DNA of 64,000 bases from positions 23,173,288 through 23,237,287 of the forward strand of contig NC_081390.1 of assembly GCF_030684315.1 (NCBI RefSeq). The letters run 5' to 3'. Positions 9,122-64,000 of the stretch are shown here, piece after piece. A program made the translations under genes and the position numbers. The DNA comes from Stegostoma tigrinum (lineage: Eukaryota). Each line of letters starts with the position of its first letter. Positions within the stretch are counted from its first letter, which is position 1. Under the pieces are notes generated by a model. The model was given only the letters and a program-made list of their open reading frames with translations, was not told the origin of the DNA and made no database searches.

Positions 9122-9339
9122 CAGGAACAAAAACAAAGTTGCTGGAAAAGCTCAGCAGGTCTGGCAGCATCTTTGGAGGAGAAAACAGAGTTAACATTTC
9201 GGGTCCAATGATCCTTCCTCAGGCACCGGACCTGAAACATTAACTCTGTTTTCTCCTCCACAGATGCTGCCAGACCTGCTGAGCTTTTCCAGCAACTTTG
9301 TTTTTGTTCCTGATTTACAGTATCCACAGTTCTTTTGGT
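9122..9339. mobile_element. Fold-back PLE family B mini-element with hammerhead motif (9191-9222, minus)
   Basis: About 85-bp inverted arms 9122-9206 and 9228-9312, plus one-sided tail. TSD AATTAATACAGG/AATCAATACAGG (9114-9125, 9340-9351). Confidence 0.85.
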
Positions 9340-9906
9340 AATCAATACAGGGCTCTTCTGTCATAACACCCACACCATGGTAATTCTGACATTACCAAGG
9401 CTGTAAGCTTTGCTTGGTTTCCATATGTTTTGTGACTTACACACCAACCTGTGTCGGGTGGAGTGAGGAAGTTTCAAAAGAAGTCTTTAAAACTGGTCAG
9501 CTTTGTAGTCTTATTTAGATGTCATGCTTCATATCATCGACAGCTTGGCCATGAGCTAAATGAAAGGCTAATTTGACAAGAAAAGGCACAATCACTTAAA
9601 AACAAACAAAAGCATCTGTGGATGCTGTAGATCAGAGACAACGATAGAAATTGCTGGAAAAGCTGAGCGGGTCTGGCAGCATCTGTGGGGTGAAATCAGA
9701 GTTAACGTTTCGGGTCAAGAGACTCTTCTTCTGGGTCATCTGATTCAGCATTGATATGACCGATAGGAATACAGTGCTGGGTGCTCTACCCTGAAAGAGC
9801 ATACCAACAGGAATACATTAGGGTTGCAAGCAGCAAGTTTGAATACACAAACAGAAAGAAAACTGCTGCCTGAACAGGGAAACTAGACACGCTGTACCAC
9901 CTAAAT

Positions 9907-10036
9907 GACAAAGTGTGAAGCTGGATGAACACAGCAGGCCACATCAGGTGCTCCTGAGATGCTGCTTGGCCTGCTGTGTTCATCCAGCTTCAGACTTTGT
10001 TATCTTGGATTCTCCAGCATCTGCAGTTCCCATTCG
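9907..10036. mobile_element. Fold-back PLE family A mini-element
   Basis: 34-bp arms 9908-9941 and 9967-10000, one-sided tail, 15-bp TSD CTGTACCACCTAAAT (9892-9906, 10039-10053). Confidence 0.88.
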
Positions 10037-18000: not shown

Positions 18001-19344
18001 TGGTCAAAATTTAACAGCAGTTTTTTGGCAGGATCTGGGATACTTATACATCTAATGGACAGAAATAAGTGGGTAGAACGGAATTGGTGCCATGAAACGT
18101 TTATACAGTACAGGCAGTCCCCCGGGTGCACATGGTTTCTGTTTTCGATTCCATTCACACATCCAGAACACAAAGCAGAACAATGTTAAACAGCCGTGTG
18201 TAAATAAGTGGAGACATACTATAGTGGATCTTTAAAGTTACACTCCTGTATGGGATCATGTTCATAAGTCAGACATTCGTAAATTGGGGACCACCCCCCC
18301 ACCCTGTCATATAACACGCAAAAGGAACATTTAAATGTCACAGTCTTCTCTCCCACCTCCCACTTCAATGAAAGTTATTCCCCTTATCAAAACAATTGAG
18401 ATGTAACAACCAATTTCACAATCACAGAAAACTGTAGCAGAGTGAGATCGATGCGATCATGTTACAATGCAATTACTAACCAAAAATTGGGGATTGCATT
18501 ATAGGTGCATTGGTGCATGGCTGTGAGCTTTCTATTCTGTCTTTTACAATCCATATAAAACTTTTATCATGGGATTAGAACAATGAAGCGATGTCAGGAA
18601 CATTTTAACTCTGCTGAGGTCAAAATGCTACCCTTAAGGATGTGGTGGCCAAGAGGTACAGTCACTAGACAAGTACACTCATACAAATACTTTGGGGATA
18701 TGGGTTTGAGGCCCACCACTGCAGATGATGAAACTTATATTCTACCCTAATGGTGAGCTTGTAATCATTAAGCTGATGCCGTTAAAAAAAAACCCATCTA
18801 CCCCTTTGCGGCAGGAAATGTGCCATCGTCACCCGGTTTGGCCTAACTCTGACTGTAGGACCACACCAATATGGTTAGGTTAACTGTCCTCTGAAATGTC
18901 TTTTAGCCAACACACAAAATTTCAACTTTCTCACTGAAGCAAGATGCTTACACTGCTGGGGTCAGCTTAGTCTAAAACCTAAAATTAAACTGTTTGTTTA
19001 TAACAGAAGAAACCCCTTTCACTACTCATGCAGAGCGTTATTTTTAATCTAATGATGTCCTTTTTTTGGCCACTAGCTCATGTGATAGTTCACTGGAAAC
19101 CAGGTGCTTTACCATAAATCCCTTTTCAAAGAAACATAGTTCTTAACAAAGCCACAAAACTAAGATAAAATACAGAGCTCTTCTCTCCAGATGCTATTGC
19201 ATTGATAATTCCCAAACTTGGTCGAAAGTGGTCCAAGGGTGACCCTGTAATAGCCAGAAATTGATTGCTCACTGGCTGGACTGGTCATGAGTGCAATTCA
19301 GTTGTCGTGGGAAGAAATTTGAAACTCTCCTAAATGAGACGAAG

Positions 19345-19502
19345 AGACATAACAAGGTGTAGAGCTGGATGAACACAGCAGGCCAAGCAGCATCAGAGGA
19401 GCAGCTTTTCTGCTCCTCTGATGCTGCTTGGCCTGCTGTGTTCATCCAGCTCTACACCTTGTTATCTCAGAGTCTCCAGCATCTGCAGTTCCTACTATCT
19501 AT
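19345..19502. mobile_element. Fold-back PLE family A mini-element with a perfect 56-bp stem
   Basis: Arms 19349-19404 and 19410-19465 are exact reverse complements with a 5-nt loop. One-sided tail. TSD GAGACGAAG (19336-19344, 19505-19513). Confidence 0.92.
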
Positions 19503-20174
19503 GAGAGACGAAGTTCCTTTCAATGTTCTGAGAGCAGGTCTCAGTAAATTACGCATTTAGCAGCGTGGACTAGTGTAGTTCATGGCTGTGCAGGGCTCTA
19601 ACCTCTCTGCAAGAACCAACTTTTATCCAAACCAGCTGAAAATTCATGTTATTCCAACCTTGCATTTTTGGACAATATTCAGTTGTGGTCAGAACTGACG
19701 GTGATACAATCCTATTTTTCCACCCTCCCTGCACCATTCACCTTCAGGGATCCACACAGCCTTATATCCCTTGACCAGATTTTGTTCTGTCATTGAGTAA
19801 CCTCAGAAGGGAGCTTGGAACTGCAGCGACATTTTGAAAACATAATGTGCCACTGAACAAAATGCCTGAAGGCTCAATGAACATAATTAAGTAATGCATC
19901 ATTACTTATGCTAGGCTGCAAACCGAACCCATTGCACATTCACAAACATGGGAGCAACACATGGGAGTCAAAGAAAAATGAACAAAATGTTTGTCAACAA
20001 CAACATGAACCTGTATAGCACTTTTAAGATCATACGGTGGTTTCACTTGAATGATACTGTCAAACATTGACATTCAATATTCAAAGGTGGTGACACAAGA
20101 ACAGGTAACCAGGGATCTTGGAATTCCCTCCCCTAAGGGCATTGTAGATCTATCTACACCAAATGGACAGCAGT

Positions 20175-20488: not shown

Positions 20489-22809
20489 CTGTATAAACAG
20501 AACAGCAATTTATTGTCACTAGTAATGAAATGCAGTGAACTATGTATATGTCACCACAATTCAGTGCCATTTTAATTTCAAGAAACAGTAAAAATAAATA
20601 ATTGAGTGAGGACAACGTTGATCTTTTGTTCCCTCCATGGCTCCTAGGTTTATGGGGTGGCTGTGTGACGCTGGCCCTGAGGCTGCCAAAGCCAGGATTT
20701 CTGGTCAGGACTGACCACATTGCCACTGCCGAAGCCAACACTGAAATGACTGCACCTCCACCACAGCAAGGAGGAACAGACTGGCTGAAACTGTCACTCA
20801 AACCATCACCAGTACATTCAGTGGTTCATGAAAGCAGCTCACCACTACTTTCTCCAGCGTAACTAAGGACAAGCAATAAACGCTGGCCCAACCAGCGATG
20901 TCCATATCCCATGAGTGAATAAAACAAAATTGATCCCATAGACAGGTTTTATGCAGTGTCTCAGAGGAGGTACAGAGAAGAAACTGCAAAATGTAGGACC
21001 TGAATGGTAGAAGGCATGGTCGCCAATCCTAGGGCAAAGAAGACTGGGGATAAGGGCCAGAATTGGGAAGGGGCAGAACTCAGAAATGACTCTAAAAATT
21101 TGTGGAACTTACGGGCTCAGAGAGCTGAGCTCATGGTGGGGCTTGAACACAAGCAGTGGAATTGTAAAACTGGGACCGTGCCAGATCAGGAGTCAACACG
21201 GGTCAGCAAGCACAGGGGTGACAACTAAATGGGATTGAGTGCAAGGTGAGGCTTGCAAGGCAAAGATTTGGAATGGCTGGAGGTTATGGACGTTGAACCT
21301 AAACTTTTTTGACCTGTGACAAAGAAGATGCTAGTTTTGCCCAGGAGAATGCAATGGAAACAGTGCAATATTTTCCTCACAACTATTAAAACTTCACCAA
21401 CCTGAAAGGTTAACTTTATTTTTCTTTCCACAAACACAGAAAGACGTGTTGAGTACTGGCACCATTTCCTCAATCACTCTCACATTTTGCCACCTACAAA
21501 GTCCAGTATTTTGCCCTCAAATAGAACCCTAACACTTTACTCTGAGAATAAACACCTGCACTTGGAGTATTTGACTTAAGCTATGTGCAACACCATCTGG
21601 AGGTAACAAATTATTTTAGGAGAAGGCAACACGTGTCTATTGTTACTGTAAGGAAAAACAAATCATTATAATCTTGGCCAATGACTACAGGGGTGTTGAA
21701 ATAATAATGTGCTAGTTGTATTTTTGAACAAATCTGAATAGTATTCCAAAGGAAAGTAAAATTACCACAAGTAAAAATCATTTTAAGTAATGGTGGCACA
21801 GCCCGGTCTAGTGGAACATGTAGTCGGTAAAGTGTGGGGAGTCACGGGCCCTATCAGTGTCTCAATCACCACATGTGCACGAAGCAAAGCCAGCGACAGA
21901 AGTTTCAACTCAAGGCTTTGGGTTTGAGCAATAGCTGCGGGCACTGATGCATCCACGAGGCTGGGAGTCATGTAGATAACACGTTCACAGAGGCAGTCAC
22001 ATTGCAGCTTAAAGGCCTGGAGACAGAAAGAGAATGTGTGACCACTACAGAATCCAGGAGAAACGGGCAGGTAGTGCAGGAGTCTCTTGGGTTCGAAATT
22101 TCGAATCGGTTTTCCATTTTGCAAGCTGGTCAGGGCAATGGTTCCTCAAAAGTGTGCAGTCAGACCCAAGGCCGAGGTGACATGAACAGGTTGGCTGAAC
22201 AGATGGTGAGGAGGAAGAAAGGAGGTGCAATTGTGAGAGGGATTTCATTAATGAGAGTAACCACCAAATATTTCTGTGATCATAGACATGTCTCCAGGAG
22301 GGTATGTTGCCTCCCTGATGCCAAGGTAAAGGACAACACAGAGCAAGTGCTACACCCTGTTCTAGGGAGGGTGAACAGCCAGAAGTCATGGTCCACTTTA
22401 GTGCCAATGGCCTGAAGTGGAAGTGAGATGTGGGAATGAAGCAGGGAGTTAGCAAGCAGGACCTCAAATGTAGTAATCTCTGGATTACTCCCAATGCTAT
22501 ATGCAAGTGAGTACAGAAATAGGAGGACGAAACAGATGAATGTGCAGTTGGAAAGATGATGCAGGACAGAAGGTTTTAGAATTGGCTCTCAGGAAGATAG
22601 TAACTGTACAAGCCAGCTGGGTTGTACCAGAACAGAATTCGGACTGAGTTGCGGGTATTTTGTTGGCGCTTTTCAGTGGACTTTAAACTAATTCAGTAGG
22701 AAGTGTGGGAGCCAAGAGAGAATAATACTAGCGAGTTTTGAGAAGATTTGTAGCTCAGGTTGAGTTTCTGGATGTGAGTTTGCTCGCTGAGCTGGAAGGT
22801 TAGTTTTCA

Positions 22810-22843
22810 GAAGTTTCGTCACCATTCTAGGTAACATCATCAG
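22810..22843 (-). ncRNA. Minimal type I hammerhead ribozyme motif (PLE family E)
   Basis: CUGAUGA-U-GUUACC-UAGAAU-GGUGAC-GAAA-CUUC. Core intact, stem III palindrome mutated. Confidence 0.75.
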
Positions 22844-23692
22844 TGAGCCTCCGATGAAGCGCTGGTGTTATGTCCGCTTTCTATTTATCTGTTTAGGGTT
22901 CCCTTGGTTGGTGATGTCATTTCTTGTTCTTTTTCTCAGAGGATGGTAGATTGGCTCCAAATCAATGTGTTTGTTGATGGAGTTCCAGTTGGAATGACAT
23001 GCTTCTAGGAATTCTCGTGCGTGTCTCTGTTTGGCTTGTCCTAGGACGGATGTGTTGTCTCAATCAAAGTGGTGTCCTTCCTCATCTGTATGTAAGGATA
23101 CGAGAGATAGTGGCTCATGTCGTTTTGTGGCTAGTTGATGTTCATGTATCCTGGTGGCTAGCTTCCTGCCTGTTTGTCCAATGTTGTGTTTGTCACAGTT
23201 CTTGCAAGGTATTTTGTAAATGACGTTCGTTTTGCTTGTTGTCTGAATAGAGTCTTTTAAGTTCATTACCTGCTGTTTTAGTGTGTTGGTGGGTTTGTGG
23301 ACCACCCTGATGCCAAGAACCGTGACAAACACTACATTGGACAAACAAGCAGAAAGCTAGCCACCAGGATACAAGAACATCAACTAGCCACAAAACGACA
23401 TGACCCACGATCACTAGTATCCTTACATACAGATGAGGAAGGACACCACTTTGATTGAGGCAACACGCCCATCCTAGGGCAAGCCAGAGACATGAATGAG
23501 AATTCCTGGAAGCATGGCATTCCAACCAGAACTCCATCAACAAACACATTGGCTCCAAATCAATCTAACATCCTCTGAGAAAAAGAACAGGAAATGACAT
23601 CACCCATGCAGGAAATGACATCACCAACCCAAGGAAACCTAAACAGATAAATAGAAAGTGGGACATAACACCAGCGCTTCATTGGAGGCTCA

Positions 23693-23725
23693 CTGATGAT
23701 GTTACTAGAATGGTGACGAAATGTC
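23693..23725 (+). ncRNA. Minimal type I hammerhead ribozyme motif (PLE family E)
   Basis: CUGAUGA-U-GUUAC-UAGAAUG-GUGAC-GAAA-UGUC. Confidence 0.75.
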
Positions 23726-25099
23726 TGAAAACTAACCTTCCAGCTCAGCGAGCAAACTCTCATCCAGAGAATAATACAGAAGAATGTCAGGATGCAATAG
23801 GTATTTGGAGACTAAAAACACTAGTAAAAAGGATAAAAAAATTCAAGAGTTTAAGTTGCAATGAGGGAGAAAGGAATGAATTTTAAATCAAGGTTACTTT
23901 TCACATAGTATAGTAAATAAGACTGGGGAGTTATAGATGTGGATTGCCATATAGAAATATGTTATGGTGATAATTGAGAGCTGAATGTTAAGTATTCCTG
24001 GGTCCAAGAGTGTTGAGAAAAGACAAGAAAACAAAAAAAGGAAGATGGTGGCAGGTTAAGTACAGAGTGGGAGAAGGATGAGGTTTCAATGGGTTCAAGG
24101 ACAGAATCAATCTGAGTGCAGTTACAGAACATAAAAGGATGAATTTTCCTACTCAGTATAGTCTATGGAGTGCCAGTTGGAAGGATGCAAGGAAACAAAT
24201 CCGCGGGGAAAGTAGAGAGCCAACATTGTAGAGAGACTATAATTGAGGACTTTAACTACCTGAATATAGATTATGAGAACGGCAGCACACTGTGTGGAGA
24301 GAAGCAAATGTTCCTAGATTGAGTTCAGCTTTTTAATCCATTTCATTACAAATTTGGATTTTCACTTCACTGTAAAGTGGAAACCTTGCAAATCAGAAAA
24401 TCATCGCTTTAATTCCCAATAAAACTCAATGAAACAGGTTACAGGGAAGGAAGCACCATCAGTAACCATTTCATTAGTATTTAGAATTAACAGTATTGCT
24501 GGTGCAATGGGAGGCCATTACAGGTAGCTTGTGTGAAAATAAAACCACTTAAATGACTTTAGGTTTAATGTGTCCGTGGAGATGCATAAATATTTCATTA
24601 CATGTTATTTCAAAGTTGTAATAAATTTGCTCGTCTCTTATGACCATAAGCACAAGTGATAAAATACCCTTGTCTCAAAAAGGCTGGCAAATTAGAGAAA
24701 ACATTGCGATTAGCTGGGAGAGCAATGTTTGCCAGGGAGAGGACCTTGCTCATAAACAGTGAAATCAGTTCTTTAACATCTATGTGAAGCCAATGGCAGT
24801 TCAACACTTCAACCAAGGGCCACATCCAAAAATTCAACAGTTCCTCACACCTGCACTAGTCTTTCAGCTTAGATTACACGATCCAATATAGTAGAAGGGC
24901 TTAAACTCATTTATCACAGCATAGCTGTTTCAGTTTAATAGAAACAGCTTTCTTGGGACCCCTCAGTTTGTTTTCCTCATGCTTGATTTCCTTCTGAAGT
25001 TTAGCACTGTTCCCAATGATAACGAGTGGGTAAATCTTATCACTGAAGTCACTGTTTGGTTTCTCATTGTACAGCTGTTTTGTGTCCTGATCAACAACA

Positions 25100-27546: not shown

Positions 27547-27961
27547 TCAGAGATAATGGGAACTGCAGATGATGGAGAATCTGAGATAACAAAGTGTGGA
27601 GCTGGATGAACTCAGCAGGTCAAGCAGCATCTTAGGAGCACAAAAGCTGATGGTTCGGGCCTGGACGCTTCATCAGAGAGGGGGATAGGGAGAGGGTTCT
27701 GAAATAAATAGGGAGAGAGGGGGAGGAGGATCGAAGGTGGATAGAGGAGAAGATAGGTGAAGAGGAGACAGACAAGTTGAAGACAAGAGAGTTGCAGTAG
27801 GAGAGAGATCCCCTGAGGTTTGTCCGGAGGGAGGAGGGTAACTTCTTCAGGTTAGGCATCCCTCGAAGAGGCTTTGCAGTGAGGTCTGAAACATCAGCCT
27901 GTGTGCTCCTAAGATGCTGCTTGGCCTGCTGTGTTCATCCAGCTCCACACTTTGTTATCTT
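27547..27961. mobile_element. Fold-back PLE family A element with decayed hammerhead (27646-27676, minus)
   Basis: Arms about 27584-27660 and 27886-27960. 11-bp TSD GGAGTACAGGA (27536-27546, 27962-27972). Confidence 0.88.
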
Positions 27962-28259
27962 GGAGTACAGGACCAGTAGATCTTCATTACAACTGATAGC
28001 TTCAAGGTTCAGCAGGACTCCCCCAGAGGAGAAACGCAATACAATCTCTGTCTGCTATGTTGTAACATCATAACGTGTGCTTTGAACCTATTCCCGGCTC
28101 GGCCATGGGTATTACCATTCCCCATACTTCCTCATCTCCACCAGGCAAGGTGGGATTTTCAGAAAACTACTGACAGACAATCCAAGGGTCATATTCTTCT
28201 GGGTGGCCACACAGAACAGGCAACACTGGATCAGCTGCCGTGGTTCCAATGAAACCAAA

Positions 28260-28991: not shown

Positions 28992-29420
28992 CTTGCGAAG
29001 GGTCTTGCGAAGATCTGTAGCTCGGGTGGTGGATGAGGTTGTTGGCTCGCTCGCTGAGTTGGCTGGTTATAGCGAGTTTTGAGAAGATTTGTAGCTCAGG
29101 TTGAGGTTCTGGATGTGAGTTTGCTCGCTGAGCTGGAAGGTTAGTTTTCAGACGTTTCGTCACCGTTCTAGGTAACATCATCAGTGAGCCTCCGATGAAG
29201 CGACGTTGTTCTACTCTGCTTAATATTTATATGATTATCTGTTAAGTTGGTTTATGTCATTTCCAGTTCTGTTCTGCATGGGTTTGTACATGGGGTCTAA
29301 TTCAATATGTTTGTTAATTGCATTATGGGTTCAAATCCAGGCCTCTAGGATATAAGGCCTGGATTTCAACTCATAATCTGTACGATAACCTGCCAGCTCG
29401 GCGAGCAAGTCAACAGCTAA
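28992..29420 (-). mobile_element. Composite PLE family E insertion (older variant with a young pseudo-LTR end at about 29071-29212)
   Basis: 9-bp TSD ATTAGCATA (28983-28991, 29421-29429). Older part encodes LEAWI*THNAINKHIELDPMYKP, a PLE C-terminus. Confidence 0.8.
29151..29184 (-). ncRNA. Fully intact minimal type I hammerhead ribozyme motif
   Basis: uca-CUGAUGA-U-GUUACC-UAGAAC-GGUGAC-GAAA-CGUC-uga. All core bases, 6-bp stem II, ACGU palindrome, GUC cleavage triplet, UCA/UGA stem I. Confidence 0.85.
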
Positions 29421-30904: not shown

Positions 30905-31837
30905 GTGATAATGGGAACTGCAGATGCTGGAGAATCCAAGATAACAAAGTGTGAAGCTAGATGAACACAGCAGGCCAAGTAGCATCTCAGGAGCACAAAA
31001 CCTAACGTTTTGGGCATAGACCCTTCATCAGAGAAGGGGATGGGGAGAGGGTATTGGAATAAATAGGGAGAGAGGGGGAGGCAGACCGAAGATGGAGAGG
31101 AAACAAGATAGGTGGAAAGGAGAGTATAGGTGAGGAGGTAGGGGGGGGATAGGTCAGTCCAGGGAAGATGGACAGGTCAAGGAGGTGGGATGAGGTTAGT
31201 AGGTAGGAAATGGAGGTGCACCTTGAGGTGGGAGGAAGGGATGGGTGAGAGGAAGAACAGGTTAGGGAAGCAGAGACAGGCTGGGCTGGTTTTGTGATGC
31301 AGTGGGGGGAGGGGACGAACTGGGCTGGTTTTGGGATGCGCTGGGGGAAGGGGAGATCTTGAAGCTTGTGAAGTCCACATTGACACCATTGGGCTGCAGG
31401 GTTCCCAAGTGCAATATGAGTTGCTGTTCCTGCAACCTTCGGATGGCATCATTGTGGCACTGCAGGAGCCCCATGATGGACATGTCATCTAAAGAATGGG
31501 CAGGGGAGTTAAAATGGTTCGCGACTGGGAAGTGCAGTTGTTTATTGCGGACCGAGCGGAGGTGTTCTGCAAAGCGGTCCCCAAGCCTCCGCTGGGTTTC
31601 CCCAATGTAGAGGAAGCCACACCGTGTACAATGGATACAAGCGGAGACCGCTTGGTGGATGGGGAAACCAAGCGGAGGCTTGGGGACCGCTTTGCAGAAC
31701 ACCTTCACTCGGTTGGGAACAAACAACTGCACCTCCCAGTCGCAAATCATTTCCACTCCCCCTCCCATTCTTTAGATGACACGTCCATCATGGGCTTCCT
31801 GCAGTGCCACAATGATGCCACCCGAAGGTTGCAGGAA
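30905..31837 (-). mobile_element. PLE family A 3' region with GIY-YIG endonuclease domain and inverted 5' segment (31659-31837)
   Basis: ORF 31262..31768 CIHCTRCGFLYIGETQRRLGDRFAEHLRSV...PVANHFNS...EQQLILHLGTLQPNGVNVDF. Decayed hammerhead at 31001-31031. Confidence 0.93.
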
Positions 31838-32257
31838 AGCTAGCCACCAGGATACATGAACATCAACTAGCCACGAAACGACATGACCCACTATCACTAG
31901 TATCCTTACATACAAATAAGGAAGGACACCACTATGATTGGGACAACACATCCATCCTAGGACAAGCCAAACAGAGACACGCACGAGAATTCCTAGAAGC
32001 ATGGCATTCCAACCGGAACTCCATCAACAAACACATTGGCTCCAAATCAATCTACCATCCCCTGAGAAAAAGAACAGGAAATGACATCACCAACACAGGA
32101 AATGACATCACCAACCCAAGGAAACCTAACCAGATAAATAGAAAGCAGGACATAACACCAGCTCTTTGTCGGAGGCTCACTGATGTTGTTACCTAGAATG
32201 GTGACGAAACGTCTGAAAACTAACCTTCCAGCTCAGCGAGCAAACTCACATCCAGAA
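31836..32257 (+). mobile_element. PLE family E arm fused directly to the family A inverted segment
   Basis: Closely matches 23352-23768. Hammerhead at 32180-32213 has one core substitution (CUGAUGU). Confidence 0.92.
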
Positions 32258-43881: not shown

Positions 43882-46604
43882 AGAAGATGTGGTCTTCCCT
43901 TTGGCTCTTCAGAAGGGCACGAGTGGAGTAATTAGACATTTGGAAGTTCCACATATATTATCAACATTACCACACCCTGAAACACTGGGAACTGGCAGCT
44001 GAAAGTCAGCGTTTGTTTACAGAATATATAATTGACTGCATTTTAACTTCTGATTACTTCCTTTGATATATGAATGGAAATGATTTGAATGTTCGGCAAG
44101 TTTCCATTATCTTGGTAACGGGATCTGAAGACACAGAGTACTTTTTTCCTAATTGAGACCCAAAGGCATAAATGTTTACGCTTGAGTGTGCGAAAAAAAA
44201 ATTAACAATCTCTCTACAAAATATTAAAGTCCATGTAAAGCTAATTTAGCTCAAGGCCATAAATCTTCAGAAAATAGCTGACAAATTAGGAGCTCAGAAT
44301 GCACACTAGTGACAGAAATAAAAATGGGAAGTGCTGGAGTAGCTCAGCAGGTCTGGCAGCATCAGTGGAGAGAGAAGCAGAGTTAATGTTTCAGGTCGAA
44401 GACCTTACATCAGAAGAAAGATTAAAAAAGCAGTGGTTTTAGGCAGCATAATGGGGTTGGGTGTAATATGAATGAATGGGAAGGCCTGTGATAGGAAGGG
44501 AGAAGGATGCATTAAATGAAGGAGGAGTTCGGAATGGGTGTTGTAAAGGAATCAAAGGGTGCCTACAGCAGCTGTGTATGACAGAATGACATACAATCAT
44601 CTGAAAGGAACTACAGAATAACAAAGCTAAAACCTTTTCTTTATTCATTTATGGGATGTGGGTGTCACTGGCTGGGCCAACATTTTATTGACAAATCTCT
44701 CATTGACCTTGAGAAGGTGCTGCCTTCTAGAATTGCTGCAGACTCTGGGGTATATGGGTTGGGGAGGGAGTTCCAGGATTTTACTCAGTGACACTGAAGG
44801 AACAGTGATGTATTTCCAAGTCAGGATGGTGAGTGGCCTGGATGGGAGCTTGTTCCTATGTATCTGCTGCCCTTGTCCTGCTTGATGGAAGTGGTCATGT
44901 GTTTGCAAAGAGCTGTCTAAGGAACCTTGGTGAATTTCTCAGCGCACCTCATGGATGGTACATACTGCTGCTAAAAACAGAAATAAAATAGATGCAGGGA
45001 CTCTGGCACAAGACTACTGAACTCAAAGTTGAATCTAGAATAATTCCTAACTTTGCACAAATTCTCTGTACTTAAATCCCAAATAAAAACAAAGCATATT
45101 TACAGATTGAATAACAGACGAAGCCTTTCCATGGGTCTAACTGGAACGGGTTCAAATTGAACAGTGGAGTCAGATGAATAAATTATTGATAAACAGCTGA
45201 ATAAAGCTGTCGGAGGTGCACAGTACAGGGCTTAATTTCTAGAAGTACAGAATTCAAAAGTAAGTTGAACTTTATTGATCTCTTTCTGCACCTTCTCTGC
45301 TGCTGTAACATTGTGTTCTGCACTCTGTTCAGTCTCCCTGCTGTATTTGATGGTACGTTCTGCCGGTATAGCACAGAAGACAATACTTCTCACTGTATCT
45401 CAAAAGATGTAACAATACTAATACCAATACTAATCATTAACAATAAAGCCTTGAGTAGTGAGAATCTCAAAAGTGCTGTATGTAGCTTTGTCTTCTTATA
45501 TTATAAAGAAAAGAGAAAAGCACAAACCAGGAGCAAAAATGATTTGCATTGGTGATACCTGAAGTGAGAAGATATAGTTTCAGTAAAGTCTCAACAGACT
45601 TGAACTCAGGACTTGTGGGCAGATGGAGAAAAACAGAGTTAACGTTTCAAGTACAGCCTCAGTCTTCCCTGGAAGAGATATGCAGATGAAGAAGAGTGGA
45701 GGGAGGAAGGTGTGGATGACAGACACCAGCCTGGAGTGGATGGGCTGCATGGCCTGTTTCCATACTTGAAGGTTCTATGTCTCACTGCTGTACAGTCTCC
45801 AGATTGTTTAGTGCACAACTTCAATTACAGAGCTATCAAAGGATTGTAAGATTATTAAGACCTCAAGTTATCTCCTTTCCAGGGCTTTACAAGAAAAATC
45901 TACCTCTATCCACATCATTACACTGCTTGACGAGGCAATTATAAACACATGCAAACAAGCATTCAGTGCACATATGGCCTCATAATATTGGTCAATGAAG
46001 GATCTCTGCTCTATTAACAATAAGAGTCTGCTTAGACTTGTTTGCTTTATAAATAAGAACAATTAAGCTGTGCTATGTCTTAACAGCGACATGCCATAAA
46101 GACAGTAACACTGTTAAAAACTAAAGGAACAATTAAGAAACTCAAAGCAAAACAAGCCACGAATGAAGAAAGTATCAATGCAAGTTCGTACATGAGTACA
46201 CCAGCAACTTTTATTTGACAAATGTAGCAGACATCTTCAACACAGCACAATCCAAAAGCATGGGATAAATGGTCAAGTGATAGGTTTCTGGTGGAATTGG
46301 ATTTTTAAACATTTTAAAATTCATTGACAGGACAAGGGCATCACTGGCTAGGCCAGCATTTATTGCCCATGCGTGATTGCCCAGAGGGCAGTTGAGAATC
46401 AACCACATTATAGTGAGTCAGGTGTCACATATATGTTAGACCATGTAAAGATGGCAGTTTCAGATTAAGTGAACCGGGCGGGTTTTCCTGACAATCGATA
46501 ATGGTTCCATGGTTATCATTCGACTCTTAATTCCAGATCTTTATTGAATTCAGATTCTACCAATGTGCCATGGCAGGGTTCAAACCTGGCTCCCCAGGAA
46601 ATTA

Positions 46605-46831
46605 AGAACAAAAACAGAAGTTGCTTGGAAACCTCAGCAGGTCTGGTAGCACCTATGAAGGGAAATCAGAGTGAACATTTCGGGTCCAGTGACCCTTCCT
46701 CAGAATGTTGGGTCACCAGAACCGAAACGTTAACTCTGATTTTTCTTCACAGATGCTGCCAGATCTGTTGAGCCTTTCCTGCAATTTCTGTTTATGTTCC
46801 TGATTTACAGCATCCACAGCTCTTTCATTTT
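46605..46831. mobile_element. Fold-back PLE family B element inserted in a SINE-b
   Basis: Inverted arms about 46605-46694 and 46710-46799. TSD CCCCAGGAAATTA/CCCCAGAAAATTA (46592-46604, 46832-46844). Confidence 0.87.
46674..46703 (-). ncRNA. Minimal hammerhead ribozyme motif (family B), core intact
   Basis: CUGAGGA-A-GGGUC-ACUG-GACCC-GAAA-UGUU. Confidence 0.75.
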
Positions 46832-57804: not shown

Positions 57805-58362
57805 GATGTGAAGGTGCTGGTGTTGAACTGGGATGGACAAAGTCAGAAGTCACGCAGCACCAGGTTGTCATCCAACAGTTCTGAGGAAGGGTCAGCGGAT
57901 CTGAAAGGTTAACTCTGATTTTTTTTTCACAGATGCTGCCAGACCTGCTGAGGTTTTCCAGCAACTTCTGTTTATAGTCCGACAGCTTTATCTGAAATCA
58001 CAGGCTTTCGGAGTGCTGCTCCTTCATCATGTGAAGGAGATGTTTTGTTACCATGCTGAGTAACATCATCAGTGCATTCTCCGATGAAGCGCTGTTGTGT
58101 TTTCCCACCTGATAGTTAGACTCTGGGGTCTGTTGGAGTTGGTTACCTCATTGCAGGTTTTTCTTTGCAGTGGTGTGTATATTTAGGGTCTAATTCTACG
58201 TGTTTATTCATGAGGTAACCAATTCCAGTGGACCCCAGAGTTTGAAAACCAGGCAGGAAAACATAACGGCGCTTCATTGGAGGCTGCATTGATGATGTTA
58301 TCCAGCAGGGTAATGAAACGTCTGCGAAACAACGATCCAGCTTGGCCAGTGAACCAACCGCA
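57805..58362. mobile_element. Cluster of PLE families D, B and E-like with four hammerhead motifs
   Basis: Motifs at 57881-57911(+), 58002-58030(-), 58039-58072(-), 58289-58322(+). The last two are ends of a diverged fold-back. Confidence 0.78.
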
Positions 58363-61835: not shown

Positions 61836-61957
61836 CGTGATAATGGGAACGGCAGATGCTGGAGAATCCAAGATAATAAAGTGCGTAGTTGGATGAACAC
61901 AGCAGGCCCAGCAGCATCTCGGGAGCACAAAAGCTGACGTTTCGGGCCTAGACCCTT
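61836..61957 (-). mobile_element. PLE family A end truncated inside the hammerhead; a family B remnant lies at 61655-61770(+)
   Basis: Minus strand AAGGGTCTAGGCCCGAAACGTCAGCTTTTG with CpGs intact, lacking CUGAUG. Confidence 0.82.
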
Positions 61958-62498: not shown

Positions 62499-63341
62499 TC
62501 CTCCCATTGACGCAGTCATTCAATTTTTCTGTCATCGGGAGTTTGCTTAAATGAAGCAGGAGGTGGGGTTTTTCTAGGATGGAGAAAGGACTTCAGAATA
62601 TATATGGGCTAATAACAAATTTGACCCTGTTGCAATTTGCTGCTTTGCCTTGCATCAACAATTACGAGGTGGAGGTCAATCTCTATTGTCAGGGTCTAAT
62701 CTTTTGGATACGGTAGGATGCACAATAACATCAGTGACCTGACTTAAACTGTTTCTATGATCCATGCACATTAAACATCAGGGTGGGTCAGCTTAGCTCA
62801 GTTGGCTGGACAGCTGATCCGCCACACGGAATGATGCCAACAGCATGAGTTCAGTTCCTGCACGAGCTGAGTTTACCATTACGGACTCTCCTTCCCCATC
62901 TCTCCCCTCCCCTGAGGCATGTTGGCTCACAGATTAAACCATTACCACTCATCTCTCTCTCTCTCTACACAGAGAACAGCCCTGTGGTCTGGTAGGACTA
63001 TAGTGACTTTACCTTTTACATAATGAAGCAGAAAAGTAACGACACAATTACAGGAACAAGATCCTGAAGGTGACTGCTCCTCTCAACTTCAGTCAGAGAC
63101 TAGGTAAAAAAAAAGTTAAACTACGAAGGTGCAAGTGTATCATTTGCCTCAAAAGTACCAATTAACTAACACTCTTGAGACAGCCCTTTCCAAAACCACA
63201 GCCTTTACCATCTAGAAGGGCAATGGCATCAGATACGTGGCAACACCACCTTGTGAGATCCCCTCCAAGTTACATGCGATCCTGAGGTGTAATTACCTCA
63301 CTGTTCCTTCAGTGTCACCAGGTCAAACTCCTGGAACTCCC

Positions 63342-63860
63342 ACCCCAAAGTCCCTTACGCCCCAAGGTCCCTTACGCCTCAAGGTCCCTTACGCCCCAAG
63401 GTCCCTTACACCCCAAGGTCCCTTACACCCCAAGGTCCCTTACGCCCCAAAGTCCCTTACACCCCGAGGTCCCTTACACCCCAAAGTCCCTTACACCCCA
63501 AAGTCTCTTACGCCTCAAAGTCTCTTACGCCTCAAAGTCCCTTACGCCCCAAGGTCCCTTACACACCGAGGTCTCTTACACCCCGAGGTCCCTTACATCC
63601 CGAGGTCCCTTACACCCCAAAGTCTCTTACACCCCAAAGTCTCTTACATCCCAAGGTCTCTTACATCCCGAGGTCCCTTACACCCCAAAGTCTCTTACAC
63701 CCCAAAGTCTCTTACATCCCAAGGTCTCTTACATCCCAAGGTCCCTTACACCCCAAAGTCCGTTACACCCCAAAGTCTCTTACATCCCAAGGTCCCTTAC
63801 ACCCCAAAGTCCCTTACACCCCAAGGTCCCTTACGCCCCAAGGTCCCTTACACGCCAAGG
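63342..63860. repeat. Minisatellite, 17-bp unit CCCCAAGGTCCCTTACA, about 30 copies, embedded in a LINE 3' end
   Basis: Directly visible. Flanks CCTGGAACTCCC and GGACTGCAGCAGTTCAAGAAG belong to the LINE tail also seen at 36690-36925 and 44640-44970. Confidence 0.97.
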
Positions 63861-64000
63861 ACTGCAGCAGTTCAAGAAGACAGCACAGGGTCTACCTTCC
63901 CCAGGGACAGACAATATGCTGATTCACTCATTGACACTCAGAATCCATAAATAAACACTAGGTTCCTCATTCATTAATGCACAAACAGTTAGGATACCTA

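Follow-up and report, generated by a model that had tools for sequence, protein, structure and literature searches.

The hairpin at positions 19336–19513 of the window (the whole stretch of 64,000 nucleotides of Stegostoma tigrinum DNA analyzed here) is probably a dead, 160-base, head-to-head insertion of the end of a Penelope-like retrotransposon, made from two cDNAs, whose sense arm is likely to have stopped at the cut of a hammerhead ribozyme. As a population, it is reasonably probable that the junctions of such stubs record both 5' ends of the germ-line RNA, one at a capped start before the hammerhead and one at the cut that the hammerhead makes; a few percent of templates would therefore be cleaved by the minimal ribozyme in vivo, and insertion would proceed via two cDNAs, each primed from one side of a single cut. 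The window hairpin is a miniature of a known Penelope-like layout and, as a single hairpin, is ordinary. Both the layout and the ribozyme class are already known, and the value of the observation lies in population statistics rather than in this one hairpin.

The exact stem is 56 bp long and pairs positions 19349–19404 with 19410–19465 around a 5-nt loop (19405–19409), just as the first-pass annotation had described it, and it extends to 59 bp (19346–19468) if one mismatch is allowed. As minus-strand RNA, the hairpin is predicted to fold with −132.2 kcal/mol (z-score −17.75), a stability equaled by 0 of 200 shuffled sequences. With the element numbered from the first base after the predicted GUC cut (+1), the insertion reads as a left target-site duplication of 9 bp (19336–19344, plus strand, identical to 19505–19513), an inverted pseudo-LTR arm without a tail (19346–19404, minus strand, element positions +8 to +66), the loop (plus strand, +3 to +7), a sense pseudo-LTR arm of an older subfamily type (19403–19468, plus strand, +1 to +66), a tail of about 36 nt present on the sense arm only and corresponding to the optional tail described for Penelope-like elements (19469–19504, plus strand; PMC8557442), and the right 9-bp duplication (19505–19513, plus strand). 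This family identity and layout (Penelope-like, inverted pseudo-LTR, tail, target duplication) are close to certain. The start of the tail-bearing arm, 19403, coincides with the first base after GUC in intact copies, for example in the minus-strand copy at 61943, in agreement with the earlier proposal that this arm begins at the predicted cleavage point; a reference copy of the same family, outside the hairpin (61837–61957, minus strand), retains stem II and the GAAACGUC box before the cut. When compared with intact copies, bases 19402–19404 form a 3-nt junction overlap that may belong either to the inverted arm, as its inner end, or to the sense arm, as positions 0 to +2. Because these bases fit both arms, the arm start is ambiguous between positions 0 and +3, which is the blurring by microhomology that had been anticipated. 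The hammerhead motif is missing from the insert, whose start falls behind the motif. The window junction has 52 exact matches genome-wide, many of which probably represent one duplication, and a junction-centered DNA search (21 loci, among which L004/L005 and L017–L020 are duplicates) is biased to this junction and was excluded from the frequencies given below. The window also contains a second hairpin of the same family, hereafter family A, at 9905–10035, whose perfect stem of 26 bp encloses a 25-nt loop, with a duplication of about 14 bp and a junction near +8, downstream of the cut. The longer known layout is found at 27547–27966, where an inverted pseudo-LTR crossing the cut site is combined with an internal piece, a sense pseudo-LTR with its tail, and an 11-bp duplication; at 63341–63863, units of about 17 bp are repeated in tandem.

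Judged by its coding sequence, the parent element looks like a Neptune-like Penelope element. An ORF encoding a reverse transcriptase (RT) followed by a C-terminal GIY-YIG domain leads into a family A pseudo-LTR at locus L159; Pfam matched RVT_1 (E-value 3e-4) and GIY-YIG (1.4e-3) on this ORF, with scores below the curated cut-offs, and the RT-endonuclease linker of P0001 contains a three-cysteine motif, the zinc-finger-like criterion for Neptune, which is shared with Nematis (PMC8557442). The features of EN+ Penelope-like elements were all found: a single ORF with RT and GIY-YIG, the optional 30–40 bp tail at one end, an inverted 5'-truncated copy, and a target duplication. Intact family A copies carry a minimal hammerhead with CUGANGA and GAAA boxes, an NUH triplet, and a covarying stem II (86 long copies, variants assessed by eye), and an Rfam scan of the window gave no match at the gathering score. 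Long copies also display, about 50 nt upstream of the cut, a pyrimidine tract ending in CAG that resembles a splice acceptor; in Drosophila Penelope, an intron ends at the hammerhead (PMC4209133). At L057:5119-5547, a 39-bp unit taken from the sequence immediately upstream of the hammerhead is repeated in tandem about 11 times. An unbiased sample of 140 evenly spaced 10-kb stretches (1.4 Mb) yielded 310 pseudo-LTR ends and 60 head-to-head pairs, which extrapolates to about 1.4e5 similar hairpins genome-wide. Exactly one arm carried the tail in 56 of the 60 pairs, a target duplication of at least 8 bp was present in 38 of 60 (vs. 3% in shuffled pairs), and the arm cores were identical in 5 of 60.

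Cadherin exons were identified on the minus strand at about 59.3, 51.0, and 41.3 kb of the window, and the next one about 47 kb to the left of the window. Because they flank the hairpin on both sides, the latter is intronic, in an intron of roughly 88 kb. The location in CDH23 given by the first-pass annotation thus stands as regards an intron of a cadherin gene; the name CDH23, which the exon sequences also suggest, is compatible with the exon matches, the 59.3-kb exon matching many cadherins with cadherin-23 included but not on top. A Pfam scan of the cadherin exon peptide returned no family. In contigs of run X2, the passages from the left flank into the stem and from the tail into the right flank are covered with 0–1 differences, and none of the contigs listed bridges the loop. 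An assembly artefact is unlikely, as run contigs contain both outer junctions and the same junction is seen elsewhere between other flanks. In the empty-site comparison, the related-organism contigs of X5 and X12 end at 19325 and leave 19548–19723 uncovered.

The cut-site class represents a few percent of family A 5' ends, most copies probably deriving from uncleaved RNA that ends 27–33 nt upstream. In the 1.4-Mb sample, 73 of the 310 ends were dropped for reaching the reference start or a stretch edge, leaving 237 internal 5' ends, whose positions are BLAST ends accurate to a few bases: 68 fell at −33 to −27 (the main class), 48 at −26 to −17, 16 at −16 to −2, 9 at −1 to +2 (3 of them at +1), 30 at +3 to +12, 27 at +13 to +40, and 2 at −43 and −40, with the remaining 37 still further upstream. 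Genome-wide, 29674 matches were obtained with a pattern for ends immediately ahead of the first core box, and among the first 100 of these a G precedes 20 of 22 young-type starts at −31, or 11 of 13 (p = 2e-4) once the nine in which the other arm supplies the G are removed. The upstream loose-end places listed for run X2 contigs are −28 (419), −31 (146, ending in G), −29 (62), and +9 (57). The letters flanking −31 resemble the consensus of pyrimidine-rich or Inr-type start motifs. In LINE-1, an extra G at full-length 5' ends marks a copied cap (PMC11702581). The extra G at −31 and the main end class therefore suggest that the usual template was capped and uncleaved, and the main 5' end is probably a capped RNA start. 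We found no report of a cap-like G at Penelope ends in the main texts of the open literature.

As a class, the 5' ends quite likely show a cleavage footprint at the predicted cut. Exact symmetric joins genome-wide numbered 709 at AGCT (+1), 39 at ACGT (−4), 257 at GGCC (−12), 130 at CTAG (−15), and 23 at GGCC (+28), counts obtained with patterns that differ in length, degeneracy, and subfamily reach and are not strictly comparable, the AGCT pattern covering young subfamilies only. AGCT forms the weakest duplex of the five words; because ends at +2 or +3 give the same symmetric product, the 709 joins place ends only within +1 to +4. Individual starts were counted by hand from listed matches, all located at the start of contig C1. 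Among the first 50 of 2200 loci in one set, an arm reached +1 in 30 and went past the cut in 1: 22 joins were symmetric, 1 doubtful, 8 asymmetric from +1 (5 of these arms being preceded by a base other than C), and 18 of other types. The first 100 of 4076 start matches comprised 32 starts at +1 vs. 11 at 0, 9 at −1, and 8 at −2 (p = 2e-6), with 29 that either extend to −3 or can be put down to overlap or deletion and 11 set aside as indels or ambiguous. On the downstream side, the first 100 of 13179 matches gave 17 non-symmetric starts at +1 (6 with a 3-nt overlap) vs. 3 at +2, 4 at +3, and 3 at +4 (p = 6e-4, or 0.03–0.14 if the 6 overlapping ones are dropped), the others being 23 of the symmetric type, 5 look-alikes at +4, 9 starts at later positions, 25 matches of an extra-A subfamily, 9 with indels, and 2 ambiguous. 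In these two sets of 100, non-symmetric starts at +1 thus exceed those at neighboring positions about threefold. The extra-A variant, seen also at L104, belongs to an older subfamily and has its additional A right after the cut, where it would lengthen stem I. In the unbiased 1.4 Mb, no peak appears at +1 (the 9 of 237 ends at −1 to +2 being per position no more frequent than the 30 at +3 to +12), the symmetric AGCT join occurs in 0 of 60 pairs (0.3 expected), and +1 is absent from the four loose-end places listed for run X2. The histogram of 5' ends that the first-pass annotation had put forward as a test therefore has two sides: a sharp local boundary at the cut, and a main end 27–33 nt upstream of it.

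Two other families provide context for this boundary. Family C, which served as the replicate, is young, carries a hammerhead, includes a large inverted structure (window positions 22729–23768, 29070–29318, and 31831–32257), and has no symmetry after its cut. Among 50 of the 51 loci matched genome-wide, two +1 arms were joined bluntly in 9 (exactly in 5 and with a base change in 4), 4 others started cleanly at +1, 10 were compatible with +1 given a 1-nt overlap, 2 went past the cut, and 25 were shorter or unrelated. These are small numbers, in which only the inner letters carry weight because the control pattern count (224) exceeds the hits (51). Family B, which is related and also bears a hammerhead, has hairpins too and shares the 5' boundary immediately ahead of the first core box (9122–9337, 9607–9716, 46599–46825, and 57879–57975); we rejected it as a replicate by inspection, since a blunt join at its cut cannot be told by its letters from a join at its six-base symmetric word.

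The boundary could arise without cleavage if cDNAs from uncleaved RNA were trimmed back to short self-complementary words, of which AGCT, or the 3-nt overlap in the window, happens to lie at the cut. Other four-base words do gather symmetric joins (257 and 130), the window overlap includes position 0, and palindromes at inverted junctions were reported by Arkhipova 2013 (PMC3846280); yet only 39 joins (vs. 709) fall at ACGT, a slightly more stable word 5 nt upstream, family C shows blunt joins at +1 without overlap, and non-symmetric starts peak at +1 too, so that we consider symmetry by itself an unlikely source. A similarly low probability attaches to stalling, in which RT would pause on uncleaved RNA shortly after entering the ribozyme fold at its 3' foot and drop off near +1. 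In young subfamilies, the two core boxes of the monomer are predicted to pair, down to +2, with a probability of 0.97; stalling would also account for ends inside stem II, and we retain it because predicted pairing extends to +2 in family A and to +3 in a family C copy. However, both families peak at +1 in spite of these different predicted feet, and starts at +2 and +3 are fewer than at +1 among the first 100 of 13179 matches. Against cleavage, the unbiased sample shows no peak, family A has a stem I of only 2 bp and a monomer predicted to fold into an inactive helix, and for an anole element cleavage proved unnecessary for insertion in vitro and no RNA-seq ends were reported at the cut (PMC11167929). 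We favor cleavage for the class. At the window locus, we lean only slightly toward a ribozyme-cleaved template, because its junction also fits other routes, including a 3-nt overlap without cleavage: a cDNA that ended at +1 and overlapped by 2 nt would produce it, as would a longer cDNA joined through 3 nt or a symmetric join that lost 5 nt. The earlier claim that the template was self-cleaved is thus backed by the local excess at the cut in two families and is not general, concerning a few percent of ends.

The hairpins very probably arise from two cDNAs joined at their 3' ends. The alternative, a single cDNA that folds back and primes itself, or self-priming on an antisense template, has been proposed for Penelope (PMC3846280) and does agree with the window hairpin, whose tail arm extends further 5' and whose arms are perfectly complementary; within pairs, moreover, arms differ at 6.8% of sites vs. 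12.3% for random copies of the same class. A second arm made by fold-back is contained in the first, and the tail arm should therefore extend further 5'. Instead, the tail-less arm does so in 26 of 43 informative pairs, which a single fold-back is unable to yield. Snap-back is equally unable to make the loopless symmetric joins that exist genome-wide; both arms end at two fixed element ends, and at L064 the subfamily variants differ between the arms. Tail placement, loopless joins, and L064 exclude fold-back as the general mechanism, and even counting the window locus, which taken alone it also fits, we regard it as improbable. Two cDNAs remain the best model because of these three observations and because a related Penelope protein cuts both strands in vitro and extends them from two internal starts (PMC11167929). 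In such a model, the endonuclease would cut both strands 9 bp apart; one DNA end would prime at the tail end of the RNA and the other at the pseudo-LTR end; RT would run off the RNA 5' end, usually the capped start about 31 nt upstream of the cut and, in a few percent of cases, an end made by the hammerhead ribozyme; and the cDNA ends would anneal via 2–4 bases, with flaps trimmed and gaps filled. The sense arm of the window hairpin would then end at +1 because its RNA template was hammerhead-cut. Short templated pieces of stem II lie between the arms at L132:5748-5946 and L135, which suggests template jumping or filling-in during end joining. Editing or dicing could act on a stem this long, and the hairpin, being intronic and very stable on the transcribed strand, might act as a functional double-stranded RNA in the cadherin pre-mRNA, a source of editing or small RNAs; by eye, its 112 stem bases hold no mismatch, compared with 4 differences from typical copies outside the perfect stem. 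However, identical cores recur in 5 of 60 pairs and the window locus shows no sign of selection, which leaves such a function very unlikely. The candidacy as an ADAR, Drosha, or Dicer substrate raised by the first-pass annotation is not specific to this locus because of the roughly 1.4e5 similar hairpins extrapolated.

Whether the minimal hammerheads of Penelope-like elements (PLEs) cut in vivo and how inverted repeats originate are both stated as open (PMC4209133; PMC8557442; PMC11167929). Some 1e5 junctions in one genome make both questions testable by counting, and, if the reading of two RNA ends is true, junction counts made subfamily by subfamily would read out ribozyme activity over evolutionary time. 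We found no report of Penelope junctions at the hammerhead cut in the main texts of the open literature, and figure S2 of PMC11167929 may bear on this point.

The hairpins resemble the inverted-pLTR insertions of EN+ Penelope-like elements in their adjacent inverted 5'-truncated copy, their tail of 30–40 bp at one end, and their junction palindromes, and share with them a short target duplication, which is 9 bp in Adineta Pen2a; unlike the elements presented in these reports, the window hairpin has no ORF between the repeats, measures only 160 bp, and has its junction at the hammerhead cut (PMC3846280; PMC8557442). Tail placement in the hairpin class favors two cDNAs over the self-priming proposed in PMC3846280. 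As with Anolis Poseidon in vitro, both strands would be cut and extended, two internal RT starts would define the tail, and uncleaved RNA would be the dominant template; in contrast, no ends at the ribozyme cut were reported there, and the shark family looks Neptune-like (PMC11167929). In LINE-1 twin priming, likewise, a second DNA end primes its own cDNA, the inner junction is sealed by end joining, and full-length ends carry an extra G, but the L1 arms copy adjacent RNA segments, whereas the hairpin arms copy the same one, which gives the hairpin (PMC11702581). An L1-type twin-priming inversion is thus ruled out, as both arms come from the same segment and poly(A) is absent, and so is a non-LTR retrozyme, which is described as tandem units that each have a complete hammerhead (10.64898/2026.07.22.740005), the insert being head-to-head and without a ribozyme. 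The HDV-like ribozyme of R2 also sets, by its cut, the 5' end that is copied into DNA, with junctions using chance microhomology; there the cut is the normal 5' end, whereas in family A it marks a minority of dead stubs (PMC3774820). The ribozyme resembles the minimal type I hammerheads of metazoan PLEs, with which it shares the core boxes, a self-complementary 15.2–16.2, the lack of helix III, a covarying stem II, and the location in the pseudo-LTR; its helix I of 2 bp compares with 4–5 bp in Schistosoma motifs and 2 bp in D. virilis (PMC4209133). The same paper states that there is no in vivo evidence of cleavage by PLE hammerheads, for which family A gives an indirect genomic footprint.
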